A stretch of DNA of 32,000 nt from Candidatus Saccharimonadota bacterium (GTDB taxonomy: Bacteria > Patescibacteriota > Saccharimonadia > Saccharimonadales > Saccharimonadaceae), in the NCBI GenBank assembly GCA_000503915.1, contig CP006915.1, positions 180,001-212,000 on the forward strand. Reading direction: 5' to 3'. The translations under genes were made by a program, and so were the position numbers. How positions within the stretch are numbered: the stretch's first letter is position 1; each line of letters starts with the position of its first letter. Positions 1,448-26,414 of the stretch are shown piece after piece. The notes below the pieces were generated by a model. The model was not told the origin of the DNA. It worked only from the letters and a program-made list of their open reading frames with translations, and did no database searches.

Positions 1448-1453
1448 GTGCAC

Positions 1454-1463
1454 ATTATAGCAT
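1454..1463 (-). promoter_or_regulatory. Extended -10 promoter (TGCTATAAT) for the pilin at 926-1447
   Basis: Minus strand reads CTTATGCTATAAT-gtgcac-ATG. Confidence 0.6.
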
Positions 1464-1548
1464 AAGGGGCATTTGCGAGAGACTCTGATGATCGTCGCAC
1501 CGAATGGCAAATCGGCTGGACATCAGCAAAGGATAATACTCATAACTC

Positions 1549-2052
1549 CTAAAACTTTATGTAGTAGTTTACGTTTTCAGTTGTGTCAATACCTGACGCA
1601 CAGGTTCCATCTGTGGCAGTGTCTGAGAGCGGTATCCCTTCCATATGTGCATACAGAAATGTTCCCATACCACAGGTGTATTTCAGGTAAGTAAATTTCG
1701 TTTGCCCTGAGCATGTTTTGTTGAAACAAGGATCTTCGACATTTTTAGTAATGTACCCCCCGTTCTTGAAGCAATCCATAATAGGTATCCGCACGCCAGT
1801 TCCATCATAGTCAAAGTGGGTATATCCATCGCCATTACCATTACCGCAGTTACTCGCAGCATTCATATAGTTGCCGTTATCTGCGTAATAAAGTTTTAGC
1901 GATTTCTCTAAAAATGCGAGATCAGCAGTACGAATACTGTCGCGTGCACGCTGCTGAATTCCGTTATATGCTACGACCGTAATAGCAGCCATAATCGCAA
2001 TCACCACAACAACAATCAGTAGTTCAACGATAGTAAAGCCGCGTAGTTTCAC
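1549..2052 (-). CDS. Type IV pilin paralog
   Basis: Starts (GTG)KLRG/FTIVELLIVVVVIAIMAAI. AAGGTGA SD lies inside the end of the upstream gene, with a 3 nt intergenic gap, consistent with translational coupling. Confidence 0.85.
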   Translation of the reverse strand: MKLRGFTIVELLIVVVVIAIMAAITVVAYNGIQQRARDSIRTADLAFLEKSLKLYYADNGNYMNAASNCGNGNGDGYTHFDYDGTGVRIPIMDCFKNGGYITKNVEDPCFNKTCSGQTKFTYLKYTCGMGTFLYAHMEGIPLSDTATDGTCASGIDTTENVNYYIKF

Positions 2053-2055
2053 GAT

Positions 2056-2559
2056 TTAATTCACCTTAACCACATAATTCATACCATAGGAGGTGTCATA
2101 CACCGTGCAATTGGTGCCGTCTGTGTCTGTGCTCGTTTGCGGCAAGGTCTCTAAGTGTGCTATATAAAATGTTCCTGCGCTGCCACTACATTTCATGTAG
2201 GCAAAGCAAGTTAGTCCTGTACATGAACCCAAGCCAGAAGGATCCCTTAATTCTTTGCTCAAATAGCCGTCCTTCATTAAACAGCCATTCACCGAAAGCC
2301 ATGCTCCTGTAGTGTCGTAGTCTACCGACAACCAACCGGATCCGGTACCACCAGAGCCACAGCCCGCCTCGGCGTAATCTCCATTATCTACGGCATAAAG
2401 TTTCGTAGCTTTCGCTAATTGTGCTAAGTCTTGTTTTCGAACGCTGTCCCTAGTCCGTGCCTGAATACCGTTATACGCAACTATCGTAATGGCAGCCAGA
2501 ATAGCAATCACCACAATAACGATCAGAAGTTCCACAACGGTAAAACCACGCTTTTGCAT
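2056..2559 (-). CDS. Type IV pilin paralog
   Basis: Starts MQKRG/FTVVELLIVIVVIAILAAI. By eye the C-terminal domain closely resembles that of 926-1447. Confidence 0.85.
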   Translation of the reverse strand: MQKRGFTVVELLIVIVVIAILAAITIVAYNGIQARTRDSVRKQDLAQLAKATKLYAVDNGDYAEAGCGSGGTGSGWLSVDYDTTGAWLSVNGCLMKDGYLSKELRDPSGLGSCTGLTCFAYMKCSGSAGTFYIAHLETLPQTSTDTDGTNCTVYDTSYGMNYVVKVN

Positions 2560-2565
2560 GGCCTA

Positions 2566-2574
2566 ATTGTAGCA
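2566..2574 (-). promoter_or_regulatory. Extended -10 promoter (TGCTACAAT) for the pilin at 2056-2559
   Basis: Minus strand reads CTTATGCTACAAT-taggcc-ATG. Confidence 0.6.
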
Positions 2575-2598
2575 TAAGCAGTATAAGGAGGATTTTTG

Positions 2599-3126
2599 CT
2601 AATCGGTAATTTTCACAAAGTAATTCATGCCATAATCTGTATCGAGGTTAACAGCACAGGTACCATCCGTGTCGGAAGTCGTATGCACGAGCGTCTCAAG
2701 ATTGGCATATACATAAGTAGTAGCAGTCCCGCCTTGAGAGCATGTATACTTCATGTACGCATGACAGTCTAGGCTGCCTATTGAACAGTTTATGCTGCCC
2801 GAAGGGTCTACGATATCCTTATCTATAACTCCAGCCGTTTTGAGACATTTATTCATCCCACTCGGTGAATAGTTATAATTAAACCAGCCGCTGCCGTTGC
2901 CGTTTGACCCGCAACCGACTCCTATCCACATCGGCCCATTGTCTACCGAATACAACTTCAAGGCTTTCGCTATAGAGGTGAGGTCACTCTTACGAATATT
3001 GTCTCTCGTTCGTTGTTGGAGGCCACTGTATGCAACGATCGTAATCGCGGCGAGGATAGCGATGACGACGATAACAATCAGGAGCTCAACGATGGTAAAG
3101 CCTGTATGTTTTGCCCACAGCTTCAT
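2599..3126 (-). CDS. Type IV pilin paralog
   Basis: Starts MKLWAKHTG/FTIVELLIVIVVIAILAAI. The ORF-track start at 3132 is a TTG inside the promoter, so ATG 3126 is preferred. Confidence 0.85.
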   Translation of the reverse strand: MKLWAKHTGFTIVELLIVIVVIAILAAITIVAYSGLQQRTRDNIRKSDLTSIAKALKLYSVDNGPMWIGVGCGSNGNGSGWFNYNYSPSGMNKCLKTAGVIDKDIVDPSGSINCSIGSLDCHAYMKYTCSQGGTATTYVYANLETLVHTTSDTDGTCAVNLDTDYGMNYFVKITD

Positions 3127-3132
3127 GAGCAA

Positions 3133-3142
3133 ATTATAGCAT
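3133..3142 (-). promoter_or_regulatory. Extended -10 promoter (TGCTATAAT) for the pilin at 2599-3126
   Basis: Minus strand reads CTTATGCTATAAT-ttgctc-ATG. Confidence 0.6.
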
Positions 3143-3149
3143 AAGGGGG

Positions 3150-3614
3150 TTACTTTCGGGTGACTTTAACCATAGCGTGGCGAATCGGCTGACCATCGAG
3201 CAAGTAACCGGCTTGTAGCTCCTCGGCAATCACTTCGTGTTCGCCCTTCGCATCTTCATCGATCTGGATCGCTTCGTGCAGTTCGGGGTTAAAAATAGTG
3301 CCAGGTTTGGCATTAATACGTACAACATTCATGCCTTCCAGCGATTTCTCAAGGCTCCGCACTAGGTTAATGACGCCTTGCGCCCACTTGTCGGCTTGCA
3401 AATTCTCGGGAACGTGGGCGATTGCTCGCTCGATATTATCGATAACCGGCAGTAGCTTCAAGATGGAGGTTGCGCGACCCGCGCTCCGAGCGGCTTCTTT
3501 TTCCTGTTCTATACGCCGAACATAATTTTCAAAGTCAGCACGCGTACGTTGCAGGTCGGCGGTCAATTCTGCGACTTGCTGTTCGAGTTCTCCTTGTTTT
3601 TTACTCTTCGCCAC
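3150..3614 (-). CDS. grpE: Nucleotide exchange factor GrpE
   Basis: 154 aa with a coiled-coil N-terminus (ELEQQVAELTADLQRTRADFENYVRR) and a GrpE-type C-terminus. GTG start directly abuts the hrcA stop. GAGGAGG SD is present. Confidence 0.9.
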   Translation of the reverse strand: MAKSKKQGELEQQVAELTADLQRTRADFENYVRRIEQEKEAARSAGRATSILKLLPVIDNIERAIAHVPENLQADKWAQGVINLVRSLEKSLEGMNVVRINAKPGTIFNPELHEAIQIDEDAKGEHEVIAEELQAGYLLDGQPIRHAMVKVTRK

Positions 3615-6442: not shown

Positions 6443-8221
6443 TTAATCTCTCTTCAACATTACCATAAATGCTTCCGACGGAATATCGACTTTACCAAAA
6501 CGCTTCATGCGTTTTTTACCTTTGGCTTGTTTGGCGAGCACTTTTTTCTTTCGGCTGACATCGCCGCCGTAGAGACCGGTCGTCACATCTTTGCGGTAGG
6601 CACTCAAGTCTTCGCGGGCAATAAACTTGCCGCCAATCGCTGCCTGCAGCGCGACTTGAAAGTTTTGCCGCGGGATCACCTCTTTAAGTTTTTTTACTAT
6701 CTCCCGACCCAGGCTCTGGCTTTCAGAGCGGTGCGCCATAACGCTGAGCGCGTCAACCATCTCACCGGCGACATAAAAGTCAACTCGCACGAGGTCTTCT
6801 GGATGATAGCCTGAAAGCTCGTAGTTGAAGCTGCCGTAGCCGCTAGTCACACTTTTAAGCTGATCGTAAAAGTCGGTTAGTAGGTTGGCAAGCGGTGCCT
6901 CAAAGCTCACCAATGCGCGCTCTTCGATGTAGCTGAGGTTTTTCTGTCGGCCGCGCTTCGCCACAATCAGCTGGATTACCACGCCGATATATTCCTGTGG
7001 GACGACGATTTCGCCATTGATCCACGGCTCGCGGATTTCTTTAACTTTCGTAACCGGTGGCAATTCACTCGCTGACTTGATATCGATCTCTTCACCCGTT
7101 GTCAGCGTAACTTGGTAGTCGGTACTCGGATTTGTCACGACGAGGTCGAGGTCGTATTCGCGCTCCAACCGCTCGCGGATGATATCCATGTGGAGTAGTC
7201 CCAAAAAGCCGATCCGGACGCCGTAGCCAAGCACCGGCGAATTTTCCGGCTCGAACTGTAGGGCCGAGTCGCTCATTGCCAGCTTTTCGATCGCTTCCTT
7301 GAGATCATTATAATCTTCGTTGGAGACCGGGAAGAAGCCGGCGTAGACAAACGGCTTGACATGCTGATAGCCCGGCAGTGTATGCGTAGCGCGTGCTCGA
7401 GAAACGGTCACTGTGTCACCGACGCGAGCTTCGCGCGTGGTCTTCAAGTTGGTCACGATATAGCCGATCTCTCCGGTGGCAATCTCCTTCATTGGTGCCA
7501 TTGTCGGACTAAGCGCGCCAACTTCAAGTGCCAAGCCGTGAGCACCAGTCGCCAACATCTCGATCGTGTCACCTTTTTTAATCGAGCCGTCGACCGTCCG
7601 AGTATAAAGGATCACGCCGCGATAATCGTCGTAGTAACTATCAAATATAAGCGAGCGGGTCGATGAATGAGATTCACCGCTCGGCGGTAGAATTTGCTGA
7701 ACAACTGCATCAAGGACAGCCGGTACACCTTCGCCGGTTTTAGCGCTGATCTTTATAATCTCGTCATCACTACACCCGAGTAAGTTCTTGATTTCTGCAC
7801 TGACCCGTGACACATCAGCCGCTGGCAAATCTACTTTATTGAGAACTGGAATAATAGTGAGGTTTGCAGCGAGAGCCAGGTAGACATTGGCAAGCGTCTG
7901 CGCCTGGATTCCCTGGCTAGCATCGACAACCAAAATTGCCCCCTCACAAGCCTCCAAGCTACGGCTGACTTCGTAACTAAAGTCAACGTGTCCCGGTGTA
8001 TCGATGAGATTTAGCTCATATTGCTTATAATGCATCCGAACCGGCGCCAACTTAATAGTAATGCCCCTTTCTCGCTCTAGTTCCATAGTATCGAGCAGTT
8101 GGCTTTTCATGTCACGCTGTTTCACCGTGCCGGTTAATTCCAGCAAGCGGTCAGCCAGCGTACTTTTGCCATGGTCGATGTGGGCAATGATACAAAAATT
8201 ACGGATATGGTCTTGAGTCAT
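6443..8221 (-). CDS. lepA: Elongation factor 4 (LepA)
   Basis: IRNFCIIAHIDHGKSTLADRL..DTPGHVDF..NKVDL GTPase motifs and a LepA-type C-terminus. TGCTATAAT lies 9 nt upstream of the ATG. Confidence 0.95.
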   Translation of the reverse strand: MTQDHIRNFCIIAHIDHGKSTLADRLLELTGTVKQRDMKSQLLDTMELERERGITIKLAPVRMHYKQYELNLIDTPGHVDFSYEVSRSLEACEGAILVVDASQGIQAQTLANVYLALAANLTIIPVLNKVDLPAADVSRVSAEIKNLLGCSDDEIIKISAKTGEGVPAVLDAVVQQILPPSGESHSSTRSLIFDSYYDDYRGVILYTRTVDGSIKKGDTIEMLATGAHGLALEVGALSPTMAPMKEIATGEIGYIVTNLKTTREARVGDTVTVSRARATHTLPGYQHVKPFVYAGFFPVSNEDYNDLKEAIEKLAMSDSALQFEPENSPVLGYGVRIGFLGLLHMDIIRERLEREYDLDLVVTNPSTDYQVTLTTGEEIDIKSASELPPVTKVKEIREPWINGEIVVPQEYIGVVIQLIVAKRGRQKNLSYIEERALVSFEAPLANLLTDFYDQLKSVTSGYGSFNYELSGYHPEDLVRVDFYVAGEMVDALSVMAHRSESQSLGREIVKKLKEVIPRQNFQVALQAAIGGKFIAREDLSAYRKDVTTGLYGGDVSRKKKVLAKQAKGKKRMKRFGKVDIPSEAFMVMLKRD

Positions 8222-11838: not shown

Positions 11839-12726
11839 TCAGTCGTCTGATTTGACAATGAATTCACGTCGCACAAAATGAACGTGTAGTCCCCCACCGA
11901 TTTGTTGTCTACTACTTGGGCGAGCTGTCTTGATGCCATACCATAGTGCCAGTAGCTGCGGCCGCGTCAGATGACCACCCGTCAGTCCACGAAGCAGCTC
12001 GAGGGCAGATGTTTCATCAATCATTGTGAAGAAGTAACGCGAAGCAGCCAGCTCATTATCTTTTAGTAGTGGCTTTGCTTCCTCGTCAATCTCTTTGGTT
12101 AATTGTAGCTGCCTATCACGTCGCTCTGCCAGCTCCTGTTTTAGCGCTAAGCTAATCTCAGGCTGTATGCGGCGACGTAGGCGATTACGCAGGTAGTCAT
12201 CCTGTTGATTCGTCTCATCCTCCACCCACTCCAGATTTTGCTTCGCCGCATAGGTATATAAATCCATCTTCGTAAGTCCAAGCAGTGGCCGATGAACCGT
12301 TGAATCACCTAACACCGCCAGACCCCGCCAACCGGTGCCACGAATAAGATTAATTGCGATCGTCTCTACCAGATCATCGAGATGGTGCGCTGTGACAATT
12401 TCAGCGTCGTAGCGCGCTGCCACCTCACGTAAAAATGCATAGCGTCGTTCGCGGGCGAGGGCTTCGCTCGCACCAGCTCCCAGCTCCTCGCGTTTCAATC
12501 TGGCGGGCAGGCCATAGTGTGCGGCAAGCGCCGCCACGAACCGTGCATCAGCCGCTGAGTCCGGCCGAATCCCATGGTCAAAGTGCGCCACCACCAGCGT
12601 ATCTTTATCTCCAAAGGTCAGACCTCTTAGATCATTATTTGATGGTATAGCTATTTTTTTGCGAACCATCATATCAAGCAGGACCACCGAGTCCACCCCG
12701 CCGCTGACTGCTACAACATAGTTCAT
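11839..12726 (-). CDS. tilS: tRNA(Ile)-lysidine synthase TilS (short form)
   Basis: MNYVVAVSGGVDSVVLL PP-loop motif. Start trimmed to ATG 12726, because the longer ORF overlaps the upstream small gene. Confidence 0.85.
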   Translation of the reverse strand: MNYVVAVSGGVDSVVLLDMMVRKKIAIPSNNDLRGLTFGDKDTLVVAHFDHGIRPDSAADARFVAALAAHYGLPARLKREELGAGASEALARERRYAFLREVAARYDAEIVTAHHLDDLVETIAINLIRGTGWRGLAVLGDSTVHRPLLGLTKMDLYTYAAKQNLEWVEDETNQQDDYLRNRLRRRIQPEISLALKQELAERRDRQLQLTKEIDEEAKPLLKDNELAASRYFFTMIDETSALELLRGLTGGHLTRPQLLALWYGIKTARPSSRQQIGGGLHVHFVRREFIVKSDD

Positions 12727-12727
12727 A

Positions 12728-12901
12728 TTAGCTTGTCTTTTTACCGATCCAGACGGCCAGCCAGATGCCAAAAAAGCCGCCAATCGTACTACCGAGAACG
12801 CTCCAGCCATCAAGCAGATTACTATCACCGAATAATACAGGGACGTATGCCCCCGCAATACCGAAAATCGTTGCGAATAGTAGGATAGCTGACTTATTCA
12901 T
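12728..12901 (-). CDS. Small two-TM membrane protein
   Basis: MNKSAILLFATIFGIAGAYVPVLFG..GGFFGIWLAVWIGKK. TATAAT (12913-12908) lies 6 nt upstream of ATG 12901. Confidence 0.6.
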   Translation of the reverse strand: MNKSAILLFATIFGIAGAYVPVLFGDSNLLDGWSVLGSTIGGFFGIWLAVWIGKKTS

Positions 12902-17917: not shown

Positions 17918-17962
17918 GGCAGCATAGCCCCGCCTGTCTGATCGACAGAACGGGCAGGTCAG
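17918..17962 (+). repeat. tRNA-leader element copy 1: 7-nt acceptor-strand mimic followed by a conserved 38-nt hairpin element
   Basis: GGCAGCA-TAGCCCCGCCTGTCTGATCGACAGAACGGGCAGGTCAG. 37 of 38 positions are identical to 26263-26300. Confidence 0.8.
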
Positions 17963-18061
17963 TTGGAGAGCCTTCAGCGAAAATAATAGCGTAACGCTCT
18001 AACCGACTGGTCAGACTTGTCGAGACCGATACGGTCGCACCTTACACAATCCACCCATTAA

Positions 18062-18138
18062 GGCAGCGTAGCTCAGTTGGTTAGAGCGTAGGACTCATAA
18101 GCCTAAGGTCACTGGTTCAATTCCAGTCGCTGCTACCA
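18062..18138 (+). tRNA. tRNA with CAU anticodon, elongator tRNA-Met-like
   Basis: GGCAGCG-TA-GCTCAGTTGGTTAGAGC-G-TAGGA-CTCATAA-GCCTA-AGGTC-ACTGGTTCAATTCCAGT-CGCTGCT-A-CCA. Resembles E. coli metT in the D and T arms. There is an A31:G39 mismatch. Confidence 0.85.
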
Positions 18139-18144
18139 CGTAAG

Positions 18145-18169
18145 AATCCCACTCCATGTGGGATTTTTT
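18145..18169 (+). terminator. Rho-independent terminator after the tRNA
   Basis: AATCCCAC-tccat-GTGGGATT followed by TTTT. Confidence 0.8.
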
Positions 18170-18193
18170 CGTGGTAATACGGACTGGGACTGA

Positions 18194-18310
18194 CCCAGTG
18201 ACCGCGGCAGCTCCAGCTGACGCATGGTCACTGGGTCGCAAAGCGGAGAAAGGAAACTCGTGCTTGCACGTGTCCCTTTCGGAGCGGAGGAGCGAGCAGA
18301 GCGAGCGATA
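18194..18310 (+). repeat. tRNA-downstream conserved element, copy 1 (stem plus 90-nt core)
   Basis: The 90-nt core 18221-18310 differs at 4 transitions from the reverse complement of 25372-25461. It is preceded by the stem CCCAGTGACC/GGTCACTGGG. Confidence 0.85.
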
Positions 18311-18497
18311 TCCCAGTCGCCTCTACGAAGATATAAAGCTATAAAGCGGTTTTTCTTTTTCGGACTTTTTTCATCTGTTAAGGGTTAGCCCCTGGGATTT
18401 ACCCCTATATCAAAATCGGGTGCAAACATTGATGGCTAGAACTCACTCTCCAAGCACTTACACTCTTGCCTGTGACACTACTTCAAAAGTTATGGTT

Positions 18498-19316
18498 CTA
18501 ACGTGCCGTTTGAGAGCGCCTGTGTTGTTCCAAGTTTTGGAGGATCTCTGCCCTAGACTGGTGAGCCCCGGGTAATCCTACATTTGTTTCAAGAATAGGG
18601 ATGTGTAGATCGATTGACGCCGTCTCGCCATGAGCAAAGTCTGTAATCCAATTTGATATATCTGCGTAGCCATGTGGATTAGTACGCTGGTCTAGCTCCA
18701 TCTGGAAGCTGTAAGTACCAGTGAACACGCCCGTCACGACACTCATCTTTCCATGTAATCCGCCAAGAACAATAGCGGGATATGACACGCTCAGAGCTCC
18801 GGCATTGATGAATACATACAGTCCGTGCTCAAACTTCTTTGGTCTGTAATGCTTATCGAGCAAGATGGTCAACAGATTCTTTGAGCGCACGAAAGTGTGA
18901 TTGTTCATGCATGCAATCATTAAGATGACTTGTCGCGCAATCGCATTAGGCTCAATTTCGTGAAGTGAAACCTGCCAGCTAGCGCCACGAGCCCATTGCA
19001 GCTCAAGTGGAATTACATTTTGAGCCCTTGTTTGACGTATCATTTCAAGGTAGGCCGGTACCGTTTCGCGACCTGTCCGGCTATTGCAATCAGAGCATAG
19101 GTAGTACCCGCCTGTCCCACGCTGAGCATTCTGAAACTCTCGACCTCGAAAATCCCAGGGAACAGTCTCTGCTGTCAACGCATCCAACATGTTGTAGAGA
19201 CGAGTTGGACCGTTTTCACCAGAGCCACGTGGCGGTACGTGCTCGAATGTCAACGACTTCGTGAGACCGCACCTCGTACAAGTGCTTTTCTCCTGGACTA
19301 CTTCGCGATCGGCCAT
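18498..19316 (-). CDS. Hypothetical protein with an HNH / beta-beta-alpha-Me nuclease-like N-terminal motif
   Basis: CTRCG-x8-EHVPPRG ... YYLCSDCNSRTG, a CxxC..EH..CxxCN pattern. Start trimmed to ATG 19316, 5 nt after the upstream stop. Confidence 0.45.
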   Translation of the reverse strand: MADREVVQEKSTCTRCGLTKSLTFEHVPPRGSGENGPTRLYNMLDALTAETVPWDFRGREFQNAQRGTGGYYLCSDCNSRTGRETVPAYLEMIRQTRAQNVIPLELQWARGASWQVSLHEIEPNAIARQVILMIACMNNHTFVRSKNLLTILLDKHYRPKKFEHGLYVFINAGALSVSYPAIVLGGLHGKMSVVTGVFTGTYSFQMELDQRTNPHGYADISNWITDFAHGETASIDLHIPILETNVGLPGAHQSRAEILQNLEQHRRSQTAR

Positions 19317-19321
19317 AGTTG

Positions 19322-19603
19322 TTAGTACTCGGGTAGCGACAAGAGATTGTCTGTCCACTCTTTATTCGCATAGGTGCGTATGTACGGGTCTGAGTTTTTA
19401 GGATGAACAACCCCAACATATACGTAATCGGTTGGGTAGTCTCCCACAATTGCCTTATTTGTTGTCGACCGCTCCAGCCAACCAACCATTTCTGCACGGG
19501 ATGATCGTCCCGTGTCTTGCGTACGAACGTTTCTCCACTTTACCTCAGCGATATGTTCGTGACGCTCGCCTCCAATCATGTGACGTTGATATATTTGGAT
19601 CAT
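19322..19603 (-). CDS. DUF3892-like small protein
   Basis: GGERHEHIAEVKW ... YIRTYANKEWTDNLLSLPEY matches the remembered DUF3892 pattern (HEHI..v.W, dNLL.LP.f). GGGAGG SD is present. Confidence 0.6.
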   Translation of the reverse strand: MIQIYQRHMIGGERHEHIAEVKWRNVRTQDTGRSSRAEMVGWLERSTTNKAIVGDYPTDYVYVGVVHPKNSDPYIRTYANKEWTDNLLSLPEY

Positions 19604-19896
19604 AGAAAATACCTCCCCTATGAAAAAGTTATGTTAGTTCTTTCCCACCCTTTGCATAGGCGCAAATGGTCTCGCAGTATGTGTGACGGCTCCCTTGCTA
19701 ACCGCATCGCTTAAAGCTTAATATTTGGCCTGTTCTAATTATATTCGCATAAGCGTTTTTCCACAATACTGTTGTCTATTTGACGGCCTTGACAGCTGTT
19801 GTGTATATATCTACTGGGACTGTATGAATTGACAAACCGGGGGGCATAATTAGCTATGGACTATGGCCTCATTCGTATGGTAAAGCCTATGAATAA

Positions 19897-19905
19897 TGCT
19901 ATGAT
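19897..19905 (+). promoter_or_regulatory. Extended -10 promoter (TGCTATGAT), 9 nt before ATG 19915
   Basis: TGCTATGAT-aaatcccat-ATG. Confidence 0.5.
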
Positions 19906-19914
19906 AAATCCCAT

Positions 19915-20253
19915 ATGACAAAACCATCATTTTTTTCATGGATAATTATCATCGGTCTCATTGCGGGAGCCATAGGCTATACAGCTGGGATCCGTACTGG
20001 TATTGATCAGGGAACGAAAAAAGCAAACGCTAAAGCTCAATCGCGAATTGATGAGGCAACGAAGGGAGCGGATCAAGCCTGGTCGTCTTACGCAGACTTA
20101 AGCAGGGACTACGGAAAACTAAGTGATAAGTACGATACTCTCTATAACGCTGCTAAAGCATATGTTTCCATCACCCCCTACGAGACGCGCCAGCCAGTTA
20201 CTTGCAACTCATACACTTATGGCATGAACAACCTTTCCACCACTTGTTATTGA
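19915..20253 (+). CDS. N-terminally anchored small protein (hypothetical)
   Basis: TM helix FFSWIIIIGLIAGAIGYTAGI, then a helical region and a C-terminal Cys pair. Confidence 0.65.
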   Translation: MTKPSFFSWIIIIGLIAGAIGYTAGIRTGIDQGTKKANAKAQSRIDEATKGADQAWSSYADLSRDYGKLSDKYDTLYNAAKAYVSITPYETRQPVTCNSYTYGMNNLSTTCY

Positions 20254-20287
20254 CGCCGTTCGCCCTTATGGCTTCTTGTCTTATAGA

Positions 20288-20317
20288 AATACTCCTCTCG
20301 TTCGGAGGAGTATTTTT
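20288..20317. terminator. Terminator hairpin between convergent genes
   Basis: AATACTCCTC-tcgttcg-GAGGAGTATT followed by TTT. Confidence 0.7.
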
Positions 20318-20331
20318 ACTTTCCCTATTTC

Positions 20332-20466
20332 CTACTCAACGTCATCATCATCGGGCAGGGAAGTGAGACGTTCGGTGACAAAGCTACGTAATTCTTCGAT
20401 GCTTCGTTCCCTTTTCCAAGTGGATAGTTCTTCTATATTTCCTTCTGCGAGCTGTGCTGTTTCCAT
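20332..20466 (-). CDS. Possible 44-aa acidic small protein (below the ORF-track cutoff)
   Basis: METAQLAEGNIEELSTWKRERSIEELRSFVTERLTSLPDDDDVE. TGCTTAAAT lies about 45 nt upstream. SD is weak. Confidence 0.3.
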   Translation of the reverse strand: METAQLAEGNIEELSTWKRERSIEELRSFVTERLTSLPDDDDVE

Positions 20467-20621
20467 TGTGGTGAACCTTTATACTTTGTTGGTTTTATTT
20501 TGTTGTAGTACTATTTAAGCATAAAAACTTTAAAAAAGCAATAGCAATTTGTAACATTTTTGCTTTTTGTACCCCGCTTATGGTATAAATTACTAGAGGA
20601 AACTACGAAAAACACAAAAAC

Positions 20622-21347
20622 ATGAACACTTTGGATCTACTTATCATCATCGTCGTGGCCGCACTGATCCACGCCAGCTTCCAGCTGAGTGTCAGTATGT
20701 TGACGCTGCTTGGTGCACATACGATCGGATCAAAACGTTCACAGATCCGCTTGGTTGCCCTCACCAACTCTTTTACCTTCGGTGCTGCTGTCATGACAAT
20801 GCTCATCGTATCAATGGCGGCGTTTATCCTTAGCCGGTACCAAAACGAGCAAACTATGACCATACTATGGATCATCGGCTGCGGATTACTGCTTGGTCTG
20901 GGAATGGCTGTCTGGGGATTTTATTACCGGAAAGAGCAGGGGACAACACTCTGGCTTCCCCGTCCACTTGCCCGCTATTTGTCCGATCGTACCAAAGCTA
21001 CCAAGCAAACCGGCGAGGCCTTTGGACTCGGGCTTTCTAGTGTAATCGCCGAACTGATCTTTATCACCGCACCGGTCTTTATCGCCGCACTCGCGCTTAT
21101 CAAGTTGCCAACCGAATGGCAACCGGTGGGTGTCCTTGCCTACACGTTTGTTTCCCTGCTGTCGCTGCTCGTTATCAATGGCCTAATCGGCAGCGGCCAT
21201 CGCATCAGTCGCATCCAGCGCTGGCGCGAGGATAATAAACGCTTTTTGCAATTCATCGCCGGTAGCGGGCTGGTCGCACTCGGCTTTTATATCTACGTCG
21301 ATCAGGTGCTGACGCCGTCTGTACTCGCCTTGAGTGGAGGCCTCTAA
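20622..21347 (+). CDS. Six-TM membrane protein (hypothetical; LysE/DsbD-like topology, unassigned)
   Basis: 241 aa, hydrophobic throughout. TGGTATAAAT promoter-like box about 40 nt upstream. Confidence 0.7.
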   Translation: MNTLDLLIIIVVAALIHASFQLSVSMLTLLGAHTIGSKRSQIRLVALTNSFTFGAAVMTMLIVSMAAFILSRYQNEQTMTILWIIGCGLLLGLGMAVWGFYYRKEQGTTLWLPRPLARYLSDRTKATKQTGEAFGLGLSSVIAELIFITAPVFIAALALIKLPTEWQPVGVLAYTFVSLLSLLVINGLIGSGHRISRIQRWREDNKRFLQFIAGSGLVALGFYIYVDQVLTPSVLALSGGL

Positions 21348-21638
21348 ATGAAAAAAGCGGCACCAATAGACGTAGTCAAACGGGACGGGAAGCGGCCAAG
21401 CGAACATTTCAACCCAGATAAACTACATACCAGCATTATGGCGGCTTGCCTGAGCGTCCGTAGTCCACAAGGCGAAGCAAGCCTCACGGCACAAACTGTC
21501 TGTGATGCAGTGGAGCATTGGTGCGGCCAAAAATCTGAGATTACCTCTGCCGATATTCGTCGTATCGCCAGCACCCACCTAGAGAGAATTCACCCCGAGG
21601 CGGCGTATTTATATAAGCACCACCGATTGGTGCTATAG
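21348..21638 (+). CDS. Stand-alone ATP-cone domain protein
   Basis: IDVVKRDGKRPSEHFNPDKLHTSIMAAC ... ITSADIRRIASTHLERIHPEAAYLYKHH fits the ATP-cone pattern. The ATG directly follows the upstream stop. Confidence 0.65.
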   Translation: MKKAAPIDVVKRDGKRPSEHFNPDKLHTSIMAACLSVRSPQGEASLTAQTVCDAVEHWCGQKSEITSADIRRIASTHLERIHPEAAYLYKHHRLVL

Positions 21639-21646
21639 GAGAACAT

Positions 21647-23023
21647 ATGGCCAAAAAACACTCATTTGACTATGATTTAATCGTCATCGGCAGCGGTGCC
21701 GGCGGGAGCGCGGCAGCCAGCATCACGGCCAGGAATGGTCAGAAAGTTGCTATCGTTGAAGCCGACACGTTTGGCGGTGACTCACCGAACTGGAGCGACG
21801 TACCGACCAAAGCCTTGCTGCATGCTGCCCAGCTCTACGACGAAGCCCGCCACGGTGCCCGCTTTGGCCTAAGATCCAACACGCTCGGCTACAACTACCC
21901 CAGCTTACGTGCCTGGAAAGAGCTGGCTGTCAAACGTACTGGGGCAGGTGGCAATCGCAAGTTTTACGAGAATGAAGGAATCGCCACGTATAACAGCGCC
22001 GCTCACTTCCTTAGCCCAAATGAAATCAGCGTCAATCGCCGCCACCTATCCGCCAAAACATTCTTGGTCGCCACTGGCTCGCACTGGGTTGCACCTGATG
22101 TCCAAGGCCTCGCCAACGTCGGCTACCTGACGCCTCGCACTATCCTCGAAGCCATCCGACCGCCAAAGAGTTTATTTATCATCGGTGCCGGTACGATCGG
22201 CGTCGAGATTGCCCAACTAATGGCAATTTTTGGCACCAAAGTCTACCTGTCTGAAGTCGCTAGCCGCATCCTGCCAAAAGAGGATGAGGAAGTGGGGGAG
22301 TTGATGGAGCGTCTTTTAGAAGAGCAAAAAGGCGTCACTTCCCTAACCCAGACTCGCGTACTCGTCGCCCAAAAAGAAGGCCTGCAAAAGAAAGTCACCT
22401 ACACCCGCGGTGGCGTCGAACGCTCGGTTAAAGTCGATGAGATTCTGGTCGCCACCGGTCGTCATCCGACCGTTGATCTTGGCCTCGAGAACGCCAGCGT
22501 TGAGTATACTCCCAAAGGTATCGAGGTAAACGAACATCTGCAAACCTCGGCTCGACACATTTATGCAGCCGGCGACGTACTTGGCCACAGTAGCCACACA
22601 CACACTGCCCTGCTCGAAAGCCGCGTCGCGGCGCACAACCTGCAGAGTAAGCAAAAGATCAGCCCCGACTACACCGCCACGCCCCGCCTCACCTTCACAT
22701 CACCGGGCATTGCCTCGGTCGGCCTGACCGAAGATGACTGCTTGAAGCGCGACCTGACTGTAAAGAAATCCTTGGCACCACTCAATATGATCGCGCGTAG
22801 TAACACTAGCGACTTTCGTGATGGGTTCGTCAAACTAATTGCTGATAAAAATGGCACGCTCATCGGCGCGACCGTCGTCGCCCCGCACGCCGCCGAGATC
22901 ATCCACGAGCTGGCATTGGCCATTAAGTACAGTATGACCGCCCACGACCTCGCCCTAACGCCACACGCCTTCCTCAGCTGGAGCGAAGCTGTCCGCGTCG
23001 CCGCCGGACGAATACAGACGTAA
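21647..23023 (+). CDS. Pyridine nucleotide-disulfide oxidoreductase family protein (Lpd/GR/MerA-like) lacking the redox-active Cys pair
   Basis: FAD GxGxxG (VIGSGAGGS), NAD site (IIGAGTIGVE), ATGRHP and AAGDV motifs. GGDSPNWSDVPTKAL aligns to GGTCLNVGCIPSKAL. Confidence 0.85.
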   Translation: MAKKHSFDYDLIVIGSGAGGSAAASITARNGQKVAIVEADTFGGDSPNWSDVPTKALLHAAQLYDEARHGARFGLRSNTLGYNYPSLRAWKELAVKRTGAGGNRKFYENEGIATYNSAAHFLSPNEISVNRRHLSAKTFLVATGSHWVAPDVQGLANVGYLTPRTILEAIRPPKSLFIIGAGTIGVEIAQLMAIFGTKVYLSEVASRILPKEDEEVGELMERLLEEQKGVTSLTQTRVLVAQKEGLQKKVTYTRGGVERSVKVDEILVATGRHPTVDLGLENASVEYTPKGIEVNEHLQTSARHIYAAGDVLGHSSHTHTALLESRVAAHNLQSKQKISPDYTATPRLTFTSPGIASVGLTEDDCLKRDLTVKKSLAPLNMIARSNTSDFRDGFVKLIADKNGTLIGATVVAPHAAEIIHELALAIKYSMTAHDLALTPHAFLSWSEAVRVAAGRIQT

Positions 23024-23033
23024 ACTAACCACT

Positions 23034-23792
23034 CTATTCGTCAATGCGAGCCGGTATGACGACCAGATTGTCAACTAATACTTTGCCACTACTGGCTACG
23101 AAGCTAAGATTGAGATGGATATCGTACCCTCCGTCACCCTTAACGGTATATTTTACGGTCGTCCCCTCAGGTTGTCCAACATCGGCAAGCCCGGGATAGG
23201 CTGAATAGTCAGCCCGTACATACGGTGCTGTACTGAACTTGTCTGCGTTCAGATCGTTCGATAACTTTTTAAAGTCAGTCACCCCTGAATTATCTCCAAC
23301 TTTACTCAGCCACTTTCCGTCAGAGGCTGCAAAAGTTTGTGCCTGAACTTTTTGAAATACGTCTGTCGAGAGTTTGTCGACACATGTTTGATCGCCCGAC
23401 TTGAGCGCATTTACGAATATTTTGTACGCGGTTTTTGCCGAGCTATCAGTAAGCGGCGCAGCGGTCTCAGTACAGTCTGTGCCTGTGGTCGTACTGGCTG
23501 ACGATGATGGCTTGTTTTGTAAATAAGCAAACGCGACCAGACCAGTTCCTATCAGTATCAGCACGATGAGAGCGATAAGCACCGTCGGTAGAAGCCATTT
23601 TTTAGGCTTCGGAACTTGGGTTACTGTCTGTTCGGGCACAGATTGAACATAGACAGGGTCGGCCGACGGTGACGGCGCAAACGAAGAACCAGATGGTTCA
23701 TGATTAGCCGGTTGCTGGCTCGTCGGCGGGACAAATGATTCTGGCGGACGAGAGTCGTTATTTATCGGATCATTTTCATTTTGATTTTCCAT
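23034..23792 (-). CDS. Single-pass membrane protein with a Pro-rich N-terminus and an extracytoplasmic domain (hypothetical)
   Basis: TM helix WLLPTVLIALIVLILIGTGLVAFAYL. Confidence 0.7.
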   Translation of the reverse strand: MENQNENDPINNDSRPPESFVPPTSQQPANHEPSGSSFAPSPSADPVYVQSVPEQTVTQVPKPKKWLLPTVLIALIVLILIGTGLVAFAYLQNKPSSSASTTTGTDCTETAAPLTDSSAKTAYKIFVNALKSGDQTCVDKLSTDVFQKVQAQTFAASDGKWLSKVGDNSGVTDFKKLSNDLNADKFSTAPYVRADYSAYPGLADVGQPEGTTVKYTVKGDGGYDIHLNLSFVASSGKVLVDNLVVIPARIDE

Positions 23793-23867
23793 ACAGATGA
23801 GAAACCTCGCTTATGTTTACTACCCATTATTAAACCACTGACGAAGCGAATCAGCAAACACAATTTT

Positions 23868-25211
23868 TCAGGTTTTTTTATTTTGAATACCGATAGCAGA
23901 TACAACACCACCTGCTATAAGCAAGGTTGAGCAAAAAATAATGCCAACATAGAAACCGTCTAGGTCAATATTTTTACCGACAAAGAGACCGATCATTGCG
24001 ACCGACAGCAATCCAGCGATACGAGCCGCAGCGTTATTAACCGCTGAACCAATCCCAGCCTGAGAAGACTTGATAGAGCCAAGAATAGCCGAGGTGAGTG
24101 GGGCGACGGTAATAGAAAGTCCAAGACCAAACAGCAATATGCCAGGCAATAATTCCATCCAATAATTTGTCGGTACCTTTGCCATCAACATGTAAAGCGT
24201 ACCGATGCCGGCGACAATTGGGCCAACCGACATGAACAAACGTGAACCGTATTTACCCGAGAGCGCGCCAAAACGAGAAGACAGAAAGAACATGATAATC
24301 GTAATTGGTAGAGAAGAAAGACCAGCCATGGTAGCTGAAAAGCCAGCGACCTGCTGGAGGAAGATCACCAGTAAAAAGCCTTGGAGGGAAAGCGCAGCGT
24401 AGATGAAAAACGTCGCTATGTTGCCAACGCTAAAATTACGAACGCGAAAAAGCTCGAGCGGCAGCATGGGCTGCTTTGTCCGTGCTTCGTGCAGTACAAA
24501 GAAAAGTAACGAGACAGCACCGACGGCGAAAGTTCCCCATATGGACAGGTGGCTCCAGCCAAAATTGCCCTGTTCTATCAGTGCATACACTAACCCGCCA
24601 AGGCCTACTGCCCCGAGTACAATGCCGAGGATATCAAGACGTGCTCGCTCCCTCGTTTTATCATCGAACCTCAGCTGAGTAGCAAGAATGAGTGCAGCGG
24701 CAATCGGGATCACATTGATAGCAAAGACTAGTCGCCACGAAAACAAGTCCACCATCAATCCACCGATGAGCGGTCCGACAATAAATGCAACTCCCGTCCA
24801 GCCGGTCCATTGACCGATTGCTTTTGACTGCGCCGCACCTCTAAAGACACTCATAATCAGCGCTAAAGAGCTCGGAACAAGCAGCGCTCCGGCAATCCCC
24901 TGCAAGCCACGCGCGATCACCAATTGCTCACCACTTTGCGCAAGCGCACAGAAGAGTGACGTCACCAAAAAACCGACAAGCCCCGCCAGCAGTACTTTTT
25001 TACGACCAAAGATATCCGACAGCGAGCCAGCCGCAAGAATTAGCATACCAAGGGTTATCAGATACGCGTCATTCACCCACTGCTGAATCAGCAGATTGCC
25101 GCCAAACTCCTCGCTGATTTGTGGCAAGGCAACACTGACTACCGATCCATCAAGAAACGCTACAAATGAAGCCAAGACGGCAATGAATAGCACTAGACGT
25201 TGCTTTGTCAT
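23868..25211 (-). CDS. MFS transporter (drug:H+ antiporter-like, about 14 TM helices)
   Basis: 447 aa with MFS-type motifs (GSLSDIFGRKK). TATACT (25223-25218) lies 6 nt before the ATG. Confidence 0.85.
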   Translation of the reverse strand: MTKQRLVLFIAVLASFVAFLDGSVVSVALPQISEEFGGNLLIQQWVNDAYLITLGMLILAAGSLSDIFGRKKVLLAGLVGFLVTSLFCALAQSGEQLVIARGLQGIAGALLVPSSLALIMSVFRGAAQSKAIGQWTGWTGVAFIVGPLIGGLMVDLFSWRLVFAINVIPIAAALILATQLRFDDKTRERARLDILGIVLGAVGLGGLVYALIEQGNFGWSHLSIWGTFAVGAVSLLFFVLHEARTKQPMLPLELFRVRNFSVGNIATFFIYAALSLQGFLLVIFLQQVAGFSATMAGLSSLPITIIMFFLSSRFGALSGKYGSRLFMSVGPIVAGIGTLYMLMAKVPTNYWMELLPGILLFGLGLSITVAPLTSAILGSIKSSQAGIGSAVNNAAARIAGLLSVAMIGLFVGKNIDLDGFYVGIIFCSTLLIAGGVVSAIGIQNKKT

Positions 25212-25371
25212 ATCACGAGTATACTCCTATGGCCATAAAGACACTTCTGCGGCTGGCAGTTGGGGCAAGATTATCGGCAGACAAGCTGCCTCCTCCGCTT
25301 ATTCATTCTGGCAAAAGTAAACTTTTCCAGAATTTCACTGCACTTCGCGACCAGCGACTGAATGGCAGGAT

Positions 25372-25488
25372 TATCGCTCGCTTTGCTCGCTCCTCCGCTT
25401 CGAAAGGGACACGTGCAAGCACGAGTTTCCTTTCTCCGCTTCGCGACCCAGCGACCATGCGCCACTTCATGGCGCGGTCGCAGAACCA
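25372..25488 (-). repeat. tRNA-downstream conserved element, copy 2 (inverted relative to copy 1)
   Basis: Core 25372-25461 matches the reverse complement of 18221-18310 at 86 of 90 positions. It is preceded on the minus strand by the stem GCGACC/GGTCGC. Confidence 0.85.
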
Positions 25489-25540
25489 AACCCAAGCCCA
25501 ACCATGAAATAACGACCACTAAATGGTGATCGTGATTTCA

Positions 25541-25618
<78 letters not shown>

Positions 25619-25651
25619 ACAAAATGTTATCATGACCTGGCCTATTTCATA

Positions 25652-25714
25652 CTCATAACCACGGTTATGAGCGAACGATACGACATGGAGCTGACCAGAC
25701 TGCTCCACCCCGCG
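25652..25714 (-). pseudogene. tRNA-fMet 5'-half remnant
   Basis: 25688-25714 is an exact 27-nt copy of tRNA positions 1-27. It is followed by a 16-nt filler and CTCATAACC, which here forms the hairpin CTCATAACC-GT-GGTTATGAG. Confidence 0.75.
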
Positions 25715-25742
25715 TTACATCTCCTACTCTAACAGATGTAGC

Positions 25743-26189
25743 TCACTTCTGCAAGCTACGATAGGCGCCACCAAATAGGAAATTAATCCACTGCTGGATA
25801 TTACTCTCACTGACTCGCCGCGGCGTTTCCTCAGCTGTCGCCTCACCGCCAGCCGATTTGGCAGCCACGGAATTTGGCGGCAAGATGAGTACCTTCTCCC
25901 CCGGTAGTATTAAGCCGAGCCGTTCACGAATGGCGAGCTCCTTGTACTCATCGCTCTCGTAGTACTTTTGCTGGTAACGCAATGTGTCTTTCTCCAGTTC
26001 GACAAGTGTTAGCTCACGCTGCTTGTGGTTGAGCTCCTTTTGCAAGTTATAGTTTCGCTCCATCGCCTGCACCGACCCCCACGCCCAACTGGCCGCAATA
26101 AGCAGGGCGATTGCCACCACAACATTATTCATCGTGAAATAGCGATGACGGAAATGGTAGTAGGTTTTACGGAGATTTATGTTTTTCAT
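25743..26189 (-). CDS. Septum formation initiator family protein (FtsB/DivIC-like)
   Basis: N-terminal TM helix, then a coiled coil (LQKELNHKQRELTLVELEKDTLRYQQKYYESDEYKELAIRERLGL). Confidence 0.7.
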   Translation of the reverse strand: MKNINLRKTYYHFRHRYFTMNNVVVAIALLIAASWAWGSVQAMERNYNLQKELNHKQRELTLVELEKDTLRYQQKYYESDEYKELAIRERLGLILPGEKVLILPPNSVAAKSAGGEATAEETPRRVSESNIQQWINFLFGGAYRSLQK

Positions 26190-26212
26190 AGCACGGGTAT
26201 GCGTTTACCTCC

Positions 26213-26232
26213 ATTATAGCAGATGCTATAAT
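26213..26232. promoter_or_regulatory. Back-to-back divergent extended -10 promoters forming a perfect palindrome
   Basis: ATTATAGCA-GA-TGCTATAAT. Reads TGCTATAAT on both strands, toward ftsB-like (minus) and toward the tRNA leader (plus). Confidence 0.6.
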
Positions 26233-26245
26233 TACCCAGTACCAT

Positions 26246-26300
26246 GGGGGTGTAGCCGGGTGTAGCCCCGCCTGTCTGACCGACAGAACGGGCAGGTCAG
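26246..26300 (+). repeat. tRNA-leader element copy 2
   Basis: GGGGGTG-TAGCC(GGGTGTAGCC)CCGCCTGTCTGACCGACAGAACGGGCAGGTCAG. Confidence 0.8.
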
Positions 26301-26338
26301 CGGATAGAAAGCGGGCATTTAAAATTTACTTCTGGCTT

Positions 26339-26414
26339 GGGGCTGTAGCTCATCGGTTAGAGCAGGCGGCTCATAACCACTTGGTAGTAGGTTCGATTCC
26401 TACCAGCCCCACCA
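26339..26414 (+). tRNA. tRNA with CAU anticodon, tRNA-Ile2 (lysidine)-like
   Basis: GGGGCTG-TA-GCTCATCGGTTAGAGC-A-GGCGG-CTCATAA-CCACT-TGGTA-GTAGGTTCGATTCCTAC-CAGCCCC-A-CCA. The TAGAGCAGGCG.CTCATAA...CTTGGT stretch resembles E. coli ileX. There is a C29:A41 mismatch. Confidence 0.8.

Follow-up and report, generated by a model that had tools for sequence, protein, structure and literature searches.

Why would a bacterium of a lineage with very short intergenic spacers keep two nearly identical sequences of some ninety nucleotides behind two different tRNA genes? The question is raised by a 32,000-nucleotide stretch of a Saccharibacterial genome (contig CP006915.1, positions 180,001 to 212,000; hereafter the window, whose own coordinates are used throughout). 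A repeat search of the window gave an inverted pair, 18218-18310 and 25372-25464, which is 93 nt long and 95% complementary, a length far above the chance expectation for 32 kb. BLAST counted four mismatches over 90 nt between the copies; by reading, all four are A/G differences, which run in both directions, two each. Each repeat lies ~80 nt 3' of a tRNA(CAT) gene, in equal relative orientation at both loci. According to ARAGORN and Rfam, the neighbour of copy 1 (W1) is tRNA-Met 'a' (18062-18138, + strand), that of copy 2 (W2) is an initiator-type tRNA-fMet with a C1-A72 mismatch (25541-25618, - strand), and a third tRNA(CAT) gene is found at 26339-26414 (+). The pair, its four A/G differences and its similar spacing from two tRNA(CAU) genes had been pointed out in an initial annotation, made by a model from the sequence, and all of this is confirmed.

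Here, we describe the two copies as members of a tRNA-linked structured family, probably an RNA encoded on the tRNA strand, which spreads between tRNA 3' flanks. Taken as a whole, this statement has, in our judgement, a little more than an even chance of being right. We are quite confident of its descriptive part, namely that both are paralogous copies of one core (core-1), that they belong to a Saccharibacteria family, that a triplication of tRNA sequence surrounds them and that their helices are under selection; the part that makes the unit an RNA with a function for its host falls somewhat short of an even chance. Saccharibacteria have genomes of ~0.8 Mb, with mean intergenic spacers of ~72 bp (PMC3812714). 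Units of 190-290 nt are nevertheless kept beside about one third of the sampled tRNA genes. They would represent either regulatory or quality-control RNAs of a tRNA-linked class that has so far gone unrecognised in the Candidate Phyla Radiation, or a novel spreading route for tiny elements which land on the highly conserved boxes GGTTCRA and TAGCTCAG. Their importance lies in a fold that is conserved by selection within a tRNA-derived setting.

The family and its tRNA-derived anatomy

The comparison was based on the 32 kb of this genome and on ~20-kb pieces of relatives. A pattern scan of 185,579 species genomes, which like the metagenome scan needed exact motif matches, gave genuine homologues only in two metagenome-assembled genomes (MAGs), both Saccharibacteria, one after tRNA-Asn (L005) and one after tRNA-Tyr (L011). 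The remaining 11 of the 13 matches came from unrelated phyla, showed no alignment beyond the search pattern and were taken as chance. Three more homologues were obtained from the metagenome scan (L016 after tRNA-Phe, L018 after tRNA-Asn, and L017). Seven syntenic relatives were reached via homologues of the Pyr_redox protein encoded at 21647-23023, which is 100% identical to a protein of Candidatus Saccharibacteria bacterium RAAC3_TM7_1, and locus L037 was reached via a neighbour of tRNA-Asn. Homologues with 81-88% identity and equal anatomy adjoin other tRNAs in other Saccharibacteria, and the tRNA neighbours of the family comprise Asn, Tyr, Phe, Met and fMet. The initial annotation had proposed that absence of the core from related genomes, together with a lack of transcription, would speak against it; the search of relatives found homologues that are tRNA-linked and covary inside the core, which bears out the linkage first noticed in the window.

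The units make up a family specific to Saccharibacteria, in which at least four subfamilies can be told apart: core-1 (W1, W2, L005, L011, L016, L017, L018, L029a, L030 and L037), core-2a (L025a, L025b and L017b), core-2b (window 25358-25259 and L029b) and core-3 (L019c). Among the three orthologous tRNA(CAT) sites of the window and the seven relatives, approximately one third are occupied, and one site may host different subfamilies. Two cores, those of L017 and L019c, are inverted relative to the tRNA; in L017 (225-640) a single tRNA-fMet is followed by a core-2a in sense orientation (~262-410) and an inverted core-1 (~500-600), each between T-arm-derived flanks. The units thus turn over among tRNA loci, which belongs to the descriptive part of our statement. 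As for databases, Rfam 15 returned only tRNAs at the gathering score, and with E relaxed to 5 in the window, and to 1 in four other loci, still no family overlapped the units, so that the Rfam search suggested by the initial annotation gave no family; miRNA-like Rfam matches in the four other loci reflect the long hairpin formed by tRNA, terminator and inverted tRNA copy. The 192-nt unit had no BLAST match in E. coli genomes, phages or plasmids, and three pattern scans of viral contigs gave zero matches. No account of such an element was found in the literature on T-loop insertions, tRNA-linked TnpB, MITEs (miniature transposable elements with inverted repeats) of Saccharibacteria or pseudo-tRNA mobile elements. 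The ~75-nt folded element, whose modules measure ~75-80 nt over the family, is previously undescribed, and its tRNA-derived setting is without a described counterpart.

All units share one order. The tRNA (A) is followed by its terminator hairpin (t1), by an inverted copy (A') which spans the variable loop, T-arm, acceptor 3' strand, CCA and trailer, by a small hairpin, and by a direct partial copy (A'') in which the core replaces the T-loop; most units end with a second terminator-like hairpin after A''. The flanks are thus a direct-inverted-direct triplication of the neighbouring tRNA's own 3' third. The core can be assigned to the place of the T-loop because both of its flanks, that on the side of the T-stem 5' strand (T5; GGTCACTGG in unit 1, GGTCGCTGG in unit 2) and that on the side of the 3' strand (T3), copy the neighbouring tRNA. 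The loop is replaced and not duplicated, and the junctions are without duplicated bases. The cleanest example is L029a, where GGTCGGTAG stands 5' of the core (9/9 identical to the tRNA) and AGCCTACCTGGTGCTACCA stands 3' of it (19/19). The initial annotation had recognised the tRNA-derived flank after the core, and it stands; a second one, the variable loop and T-stem 5' strand just 5' of the core, had been overlooked. The spacers between tRNA and core, which had been called unrelated, are indeed unrelated in sequence, yet they have a common anatomy of terminator hairpin, inverted tRNA 3' third and mini-hairpin.

Unit 1 lies on the + strand and takes its flanks from the 3' third (variable loop to CCA) of tRNA-Met 'a', which scores 70 bits with the Rfam tRNA model. 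Its t1, read from the sequence at 18136-18174 (CCACG..ATCCCAC-TCCAT-GTGGGAT-TTTTTTCGTGG) and not listed by the consensus scan, has a stem that begins in the tRNA CCA end and a descending strand that is part of A'. A' itself extends over 18160-18203 (local alignment of 44/46 nt, score 52), with a tRNA-derived part at 18181-18203, GGACTGGGACTGACCCAGTGACC, for which BLAST gave 22 nt at 86%. The mini-hairpin at 18204-18223 (GCGGCAGCT-CC-AGCTGACGC) forms the centre of the A'/A'' palindrome. It is followed by the pseudo variable loop and T-stem 5' strand at 18226-18234 (GGTCACTGG, 9/9 identity with tRNA 18107-18115), by the 75-nt core-1 at 18235-18309, and by a decayed pseudo T-loop 3' part, T-stem 3' strand and acceptor 3' strand at 18310-18328 (ATCCCAGTCGCCTCTACGA). 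Of this last stretch ~14-15/19 positions match the tRNA, and its first 11 nt fit the tRNA allele seen in relative L027. The sequence CCAGTCGC, found in the tRNA at 18123-30, recurs at 18313-20.

Unit 2 has the same layout on the - strand. Here t1 (25499-25546, inverted repeat I6, also found by the terminator scan) has a stem that takes in CAACCA of the 3' end of tRNA-fMet. A' of the tRNA-fMet 3' third and trailer occupies 25476-25515 (43/46 query nt aligned, score 40), and the mini-hairpin at 25459-25475 reads GCGCCA-TGAAG-TGGCGC. The pseudo variable loop and T-stem 5' strand at 25448-25456 is GGTCGCTGG, where tRNA-fMet has GGTCGCAGG, with one change. The core-1 at 25373-25447 is again 75 nt long and 95% identical to copy 1, and it is followed at 25364-25372 by the pseudo T-loop 3' part and T-stem 3' strand AATCCTGCC, with 9/9 identity to tRNA-fMet at 25551-59. 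Both this repeat and CCAGTCGC had been likened in the initial annotation to att scars, and they are real scars of tRNA-derived DNA. Directly after copy 2, and with the start of an MFS gene just downstream at 25211, stands a second, diverged tandem unit (25259-25358, -), which was found by nhmmer at E=0.0038 and also constitutes repeat D6. It is composed of a pseudo T5, GTCGCTGG, at 25358-25351, of core-2b at 25350-25273 and of a decayed pseudo 3' end, AATCTTGCCCCAAC, at 25272-25259, and it is the orthologue of L029b, the unit after tRNA-fMet in L029. The heptamer CAGTCGC does occur after both copies, as had been reported; after copy 2 it is the beginning of this second unit.

The tRNA 3' third and its trailer amount to 46 nt, and in all 12 filled loci 34-46 of these recur inverted past the terminator loop (median 43, scores 34-56). 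Four of the seven empty loci hold only the descending strand of the terminator, 12-19 nt; the others are L019a, with 25 nt inverted, L019b, with 40 nt and no unit, and L033b, where the match lies ~140 nt downstream. L019b (L019 13880-13940, -), an inverted tRNA copy after the terminator with no core, looks like a possible intermediate or remnant, and L031a (L031 ~7900-7957, -) is a short decayed remnant, GTTCGAGCACGTGTGGGCGATACTTGAC, which resembles a deleted core-1. In the window and in relatives, the tRNA terminator hairpins reach into the encoded CCA end, and for fMet they also take up some of the acceptor 3' strand; several empty sites show such hairpins too. When W1, L029a and L005 were folded, A' formed two long helices with both halves of A'', and the core emerged as a side branch.

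This anatomy changes the meaning of the stem located 5' of the core. Its strands (CCCAGTGACC/GGTCACTGGG in copy 1 and GCGACC/GGTCGC in copy 2, each with a nested mini-hairpin) are present, and their difference had been taken by the initial annotation as a compensatory change in a preserved helix. However, each tRNA has supplied both strands from its own T-arm, one as an inverted and one as a direct copy, and the two loci are unlike here because their tRNAs are. A' fits the present tRNA allele in L025a and L025b, and the core-side copy fits an older one, with pairing down to 3-4 bp. The stem is thus no evidence of structural selection, since it arises from A':A'' tRNA copies and its pairing was lost in these two units; the corresponding helix P1 was dropped as a selected stem for the same loss. 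The idea that the mini-hairpin derives from an anticodon arm was likewise abandoned, as the sequences do not match.

The core fold

The fold GAAAGG..CGTG-CUUG-CACG..CCTTTC, whose centre the initial annotation had drawn as CGTGC-TT-GCACG, is present, and its central hairpin is real and covaries in relatives. The core-1 structure has 14 pairs: P-ext contributes 2 bp, next come an outer stem and a middle stem, the latter again of 2 bp, and the inner stem is capped by a CUUG or CUCG loop. In copy 1, P-ext pairs 18243-44 with 18284-85, the outer stem pairs 18248-53 with 18275-80, and the inner stem is CGTG/CACG with a CUUG loop; GGAG-rich single strands border these helices. A covariance model built on core-1 (R1) scored 89.5 bits for copy 1 and 90.9 bits for copy 2. 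Other subfamilies scored <=20 bits; as R1 did not reach them, they were compared by hand.

The core-1 statistics refer to ten copies (an earlier run of the same analysis used eight). The ten copies are 99.3% paired, and four pairs are changed on both sides. None of 500 shuffles reached the observed score, and slid controls collapsed. Across 13 units of the four subfamilies, manual decomposition of the three helices gave 155 Watson-Crick pairs, 4 G-U pairs and 0 mismatches; one pair in this count is due to an additional T entered for L019c, where the outer stem has 7 bp. Five combinations were seen in this set for P-ext, five sequences for the outer stem and six for the inner stem. One unpaired cell occurs in L030, which is nearly identical to L029a and stands outside the 13-unit set.

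Orthologous copies tell the same story. L018 and L037 are colinear across the whole unit, and between them a G-C pair became A-U by compensation in the outer stem, one G was lost from both strands of the internal loop, and U changed to C on both sides of the inner stem. The core-2b unit of the window differs from L029b by 9 changes, none of which falls among the 36 paired positions (P=0.0024), and W1 differs from L029a by 5 changes with 0 in paired positions (P=0.037). The core-1 single strands AAGCGGAG and GGAGCGGAGGAG are almost invariant. Judged from these substitutions, purifying selection acts on the core helices, whether subfamilies or orthologues are compared. The folded strand would be the tRNA-sense strand, because G-U pairs are seen without A-C pairs and because the GCUUGC apex can be read as a CUUG tetraloop.

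What is conserved is the nucleotide sequence or structure and not a protein, as the initial annotation had maintained on the basis of reading frames; by reading, the ATG-initiated frame that runs across both window copies is missing from the homologues, and a conserved open reading frame (ORF) was discarded. A d(GCGNAGC) mini-hairpin that could form where the core begins was dropped in favour of P-ext, as L017 breaks the mini-hairpin and compensates P-ext. A search of the window for pyrimidine-rich targets of the GGAG strands matched only the units themselves.

Origin, spread and possible role

The reading that we favour assumes that the folded molecule is an RNA on the tRNA-sense strand. It would be transcribed either in continuation of the tRNA or from a putative promoter that our scans did not detect, its core would be clamped by the pseudo T-stem and the A':A'' pairing, and the invariant GGAG-rich single strands would provide a working surface. 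The tRNA-linked sRNA of the initial annotation, perhaps a GGA-rich protein sponge, would be one possible role. New units may arise at other tRNA 3' flanks through recombination or template switching, with the T-arm (GGTTCRA) as the junction. As for the window, L029 has core-1 at tRNA-Met and only core-2b at tRNA-fMet, and W1 and W2 have in common a derived duplication in the 3' tail, GAGCGAGCA(G/A)AGCGAGCGAT. For these two reasons core-1 was most probably copied from tRNA-Met to tRNA-fMet in the RAAC3 lineage, in front of the older core-2b. The junction of the resulting array (..T5, core-1, AATCCTGCC, ATTCA, GTCGCTGG, core-2b..) is, in this one array, as would be expected if a permuted [core, T-loop 3' part, T3, x, T5] was inserted at the T5|loop boundary.

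A transposase-free way to make the flanks is offered by the tandem inversion duplications of Salmonella and by DUP-TRP/INV-DUP rearrangements, which are formed by snap-back or template switching at short palindromes. They share with our units the direct-inverted-direct order and the junctions at hairpins (here, the tRNA terminator and the mini-hairpin). However, they are large, unstable and sporadic, whereas the present ones are 35-45 nt long, occur at many tRNAs, always accompany the module and are kept in orthologues. Another near likeness is the E. coli tyrT/rtT RNA (RF00391), a conserved non-coding unit 3' of a tRNA which possibly is released as a small RNA; its repeats end with a copy of the tRNA 3' end, as our units do. 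We found no match to it in sequence or structure, and no Rfam hit in the window to E=5; in the present units, moreover, the tRNA copy is split at the T-loop by a module, an inverted copy precedes it, and six tRNAs are served. In archaea, non-canonical introns and split or fragmented tRNA genes have been linked to mobile elements (PMC3293823), so that tRNA fragments and loop insertions tied to mobile-DNA recombination are common to both cases. The disrupted genes are, however, archaeal and depend on the splicing endonuclease, while here the functional tRNA is intact and a spare copy carries the insertion. In no system that we compared does a covarying core occur together with a T-arm copy that is split and a tRNA copy that is inverted.

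Several points weigh against our reading. Consensus and terminator scans found no sigma-70-like promoter, and a strong terminator separates each unit from its tRNA. By itself the core shows no unusual stability (z = 0.4 and -1.4), and the subfamily-wide helix table was decomposed by eye, which biases it towards pairing. GCGNAGC-type motifs or a purely DNA-level hairpin function may be alternatives. The units are dispensable, as ~2/3 of the orthologous tRNA sites are empty, and this fits selfish DNA as well as an accessory RNA. Finally, the sample comprises ~15 distinct units from ~10 genomes, most of them from one syntenic region.

Selfish, non-autonomous mobile DNA is the alternative that has to be weighed first, and we consider it possible but rather doubtful. 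A miniature core would be mobilised in trans by an enzyme aimed at the T-arm hairpin (GG|TTCRA), a hairpin- or single-strand-specific one such as an HUH/IS200-IS605-like or integron-integrase-like enzyme or a serine recombinase. Hits in real tRNAs would be lethal, so only those in spare partial copies would survive, and the helices would serve mobility and not the host. Such an origin would agree with the presence/absence polymorphism, with the different subfamilies at one tRNA in close relatives and with the occurrence of cores in both orientations. The array in the window is what one would get if a permuted segment, made up of core, T-loop 3' part, T3, ATTCA, variable loop and T5, had entered where T5 meets the loop. 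Small insertions into tRNA-arm loops do happen here, since an unrelated 30-nt hairpin is placed cleanly in a pseudo D-arm (GTAGC|TCAG). Like REP/BIME/REPIN sequences, IS1397 and IS200/IS605 miniatures, the units are short structured intergenic repeats inserted into the loop of a palindrome, and like IS200/IS605-type elements they have neither target-site duplication nor long terminal inverted repeats. A MITE would be expected to carry terminal inverted repeats of ~10 bp or more, and only TCG...CGA (3-5 bp) is found at the core ends; no target-site duplication was seen at the core junctions or at the 30-nt D-arm insertion.

Nevertheless, the target in our case is a T-arm copy of a tRNA, the copy number is seemingly low and orthologues show structural constraint, which sets the units apart from REP-like and IS200/IS605 elements. 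The window encodes no candidate enzyme, and the RAAC3 genome paper mentions neither transposases nor integrases (PMC3812714). No conserved GTAG head was found, the window contains neither a RAYT nor a TnpA gene, and what could pass for the inverted doublet of a REPIN is a pair of locus-specific T-arm copies. For an IS200/IS605-type miniature or an omega-RNA the signs are mixed: the sense copies all follow T5 + (G/T)TC, but the two inverted copies lack this or any other constant 5' flanking motif; there is one central hairpin and not two similar subterminal ones, and neither TnpA nor TnpB is encoded in the window. They are mixed, too, for the attC sites of integrons, which have RYYYAAC...GTTRRRY boxes: there are an imperfect palindrome (A':A''), one tandem array and, by reading, a junction G|TTCGGC that is one base off GTTRRRY, and no integron integrase was seen in the window. 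A diversity-generating retroelement is not indicated either: the A/G differences go both ways, the window has no reverse transcriptase domain, and the copies lie between genes and recur in several species. Partial tRNA 3' copies that lack a core were not found. Orthologous copies hold their stems while loops change, and L018 and L037 show compensation; neither would be expected for dead insertions. An RNA useful to the host is slightly preferred over a selfish element because orthologous copies keep and compensate their stems.

A bolder form of the RNA reading appears unlikely. Each paralogue could be a tRNA-specific RNA or single-stranded DNA mini-circle, in which the antisense and the split sense tRNA 3' third surround a protein-binding core. 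The element would then fold as a mimic of a tRNA gene or minihelix and would take part in tRNA-specific surveillance, processing or decoying, or be a folded substrate that integrates at T-loops. If this were true, a phylum of minimal genomes would have a mechanism that is so far undescribed in bacteria.

Still less probable is a guide-type RNA, in which the core would be a protein-binding scaffold and the next 15-22 nt (T3, acceptor 3' strand and CCA) a guide to the tRNA gene beside GGTTC. It could be likened to transposon-end omega-RNAs and to the tRNA-homing guides of CRISPR-associated transposons; in a variant, the tail would act as a decoy of the tRNA 3' end. The layout, in which a conserved scaffold is followed by a variable 15-22-nt tail matching a tRNA and then by a terminator, would suit a guide, and so would the tails of L018 and L037, which are identical although L037's own tRNA has changed. 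However, the tails in the window have decayed (~14-15/19 in unit 1 and 9 nt in unit 2) while the cores are still 95% identical, the tail length is set by the geometry of the tRNA, and the window ORFs include no TnpB, Cas12 or recombinase gene nearby.

The initial annotation had considered the end of an integrative element that targets tRNA(CAU) genes. In its fuller form, the unit would be an attL-arms-attR remnant, left when a tRNA-targeting element or prophage was deleted, and the core an arm with integrase-binding sites. We regard this as very unlikely. It is true that the tRNA 3' end is directly repeated downstream of the tRNA, that the displaced copy in L025b and L037 holds an older tRNA allele, as attR sites do, and that the gene content beside these tRNAs is hypervariable; known att scars, with crossovers in the anticodon loop or T-loop, have such displaced partial 3' ends, older alleles and variable neighbours. 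The identity block of an attR is, however, contiguous, and here the direct repeat is interrupted by the core at the T-loop. The inverted tRNA copy and the central hairpin are always there and are not made by integration. The unit measures ~190 nt, no integrase was seen in any of ~12 filled loci and no integrase domain in the window ORFs, one core is linked to six different tRNAs, and collections of phages, plasmids and viruses gave zero matches. The covariation, too, indicates a folded single strand and not protein-binding duplex repeats. A recent segmental duplication within the genome, or a chance repeat of no wider significance, would account for W1 and W2 being mutually closest and sharing the derived 3' duplication, but it is refuted by the homologues beside other tRNAs in other Saccharibacteria.

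The neighbourhood of the two loci

As an inverted pair the two copies bracket 7.1 kb (18311-25371), and it had been suggested that this segment could invert by recombination. Our comparison does not bear this out. The central genes (a 241-aa ORF, ATP-cone and Pyr_redox) have constant order and orientation relative to DinB and DivIC in 7/7 relatives, most of which are without the core, and in an independent, near-identical MAG, whose contig is colinear with the window over both repeats; gene content varies only beside the tRNAs. In the seven relatives and the near-identical MAG nothing points to an inversion of the segment or to a mobile element between the copies. What does vary is the orientation of the orthologous tRNA-Met, together with any unit that it has: taking Pyr_redox as reference, it lies on the + strand in the window, in L029 and in L033, and on the - strand in L019, L025, L027 and L031. 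The genes beside it differ in every genome, which makes this a hypervariable tRNA-adjacent spot.

Short-read assemblies break at these repeats. The near-identical MAG (L001, DPRQ01000018.1) has NN gaps with lost sequence at five places, one of which covers 25248-25383, that is, unit 2 and part of core copy 2, and the Logan contig L002 starts at 18252, within core copy 1. In practice, such repeats break metagenome assemblies and may be misread as att sites or as covarying stems.

The 5' sides of the tRNA genes carry related traces. The 30-nt hairpin mentioned above, CCCGCCTGTCTGA(T/C)CGACAGAACGGGCAGG, occurs twice (17929-17958 and 26267-26296) with 97% identity and belongs to repeat D5. It has been inserted cleanly into the D-stem/D-loop junction (GTAGC|TCAG) in partial 5' copies upstream of tRNA-Met 'a' and tRNA 'c', with no target-site duplication; the orthologous partial copy in L019 is uninterrupted, and the hairpin was not found in other loci. 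Upstream of tRNA-Met 'a', the region 17918-18009 begins with a partial copy of the tRNA 5' side in direct orientation (GGCAGCATAGC..TCAGTTGGAGAGC), after which the D-arm is copied in inverted orientation at 17994-18009. This arrangement mirrors the 3' side, and tRNA-Met 'a' looks as if it were set in an older split copy of itself. At the other locus, a perfect 27-nt copy of the tRNA-fMet 5' half lies at 25714-25688 (-), 96 nt upstream of the gene, and is also present in L019; it is followed by an anticodon-loop fold-back, CTCATAACC|GTGGTTATGAG, at 25673-25652 (-).

The ORFs of the window encode pilin-like paralogues, HrcA, LepA, MurJ, FtsH, TilS, DinB, Pyr_redox, MFS, DivIC and an ABC transporter, and none carries an integrase, transposase or reverse-transcriptase domain. 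The three CAT-anticodon tRNA genes lie within 8.4 kb (18062-26414), and a TilS-like (PP-loop) gene is located at 11839-12858. Since three CAT tRNAs and a TilS-like gene occur in one window, one of the two elongator-type CAT tRNAs is probably tRNA-Ile2. At ~413-3150 (-), five paralogous ORFs of ~167-194 aa form the repeat families D1-D4; the one of them that was scanned, ORF 926-1510, has an N-terminal methylation (type IV pilin-like) motif.

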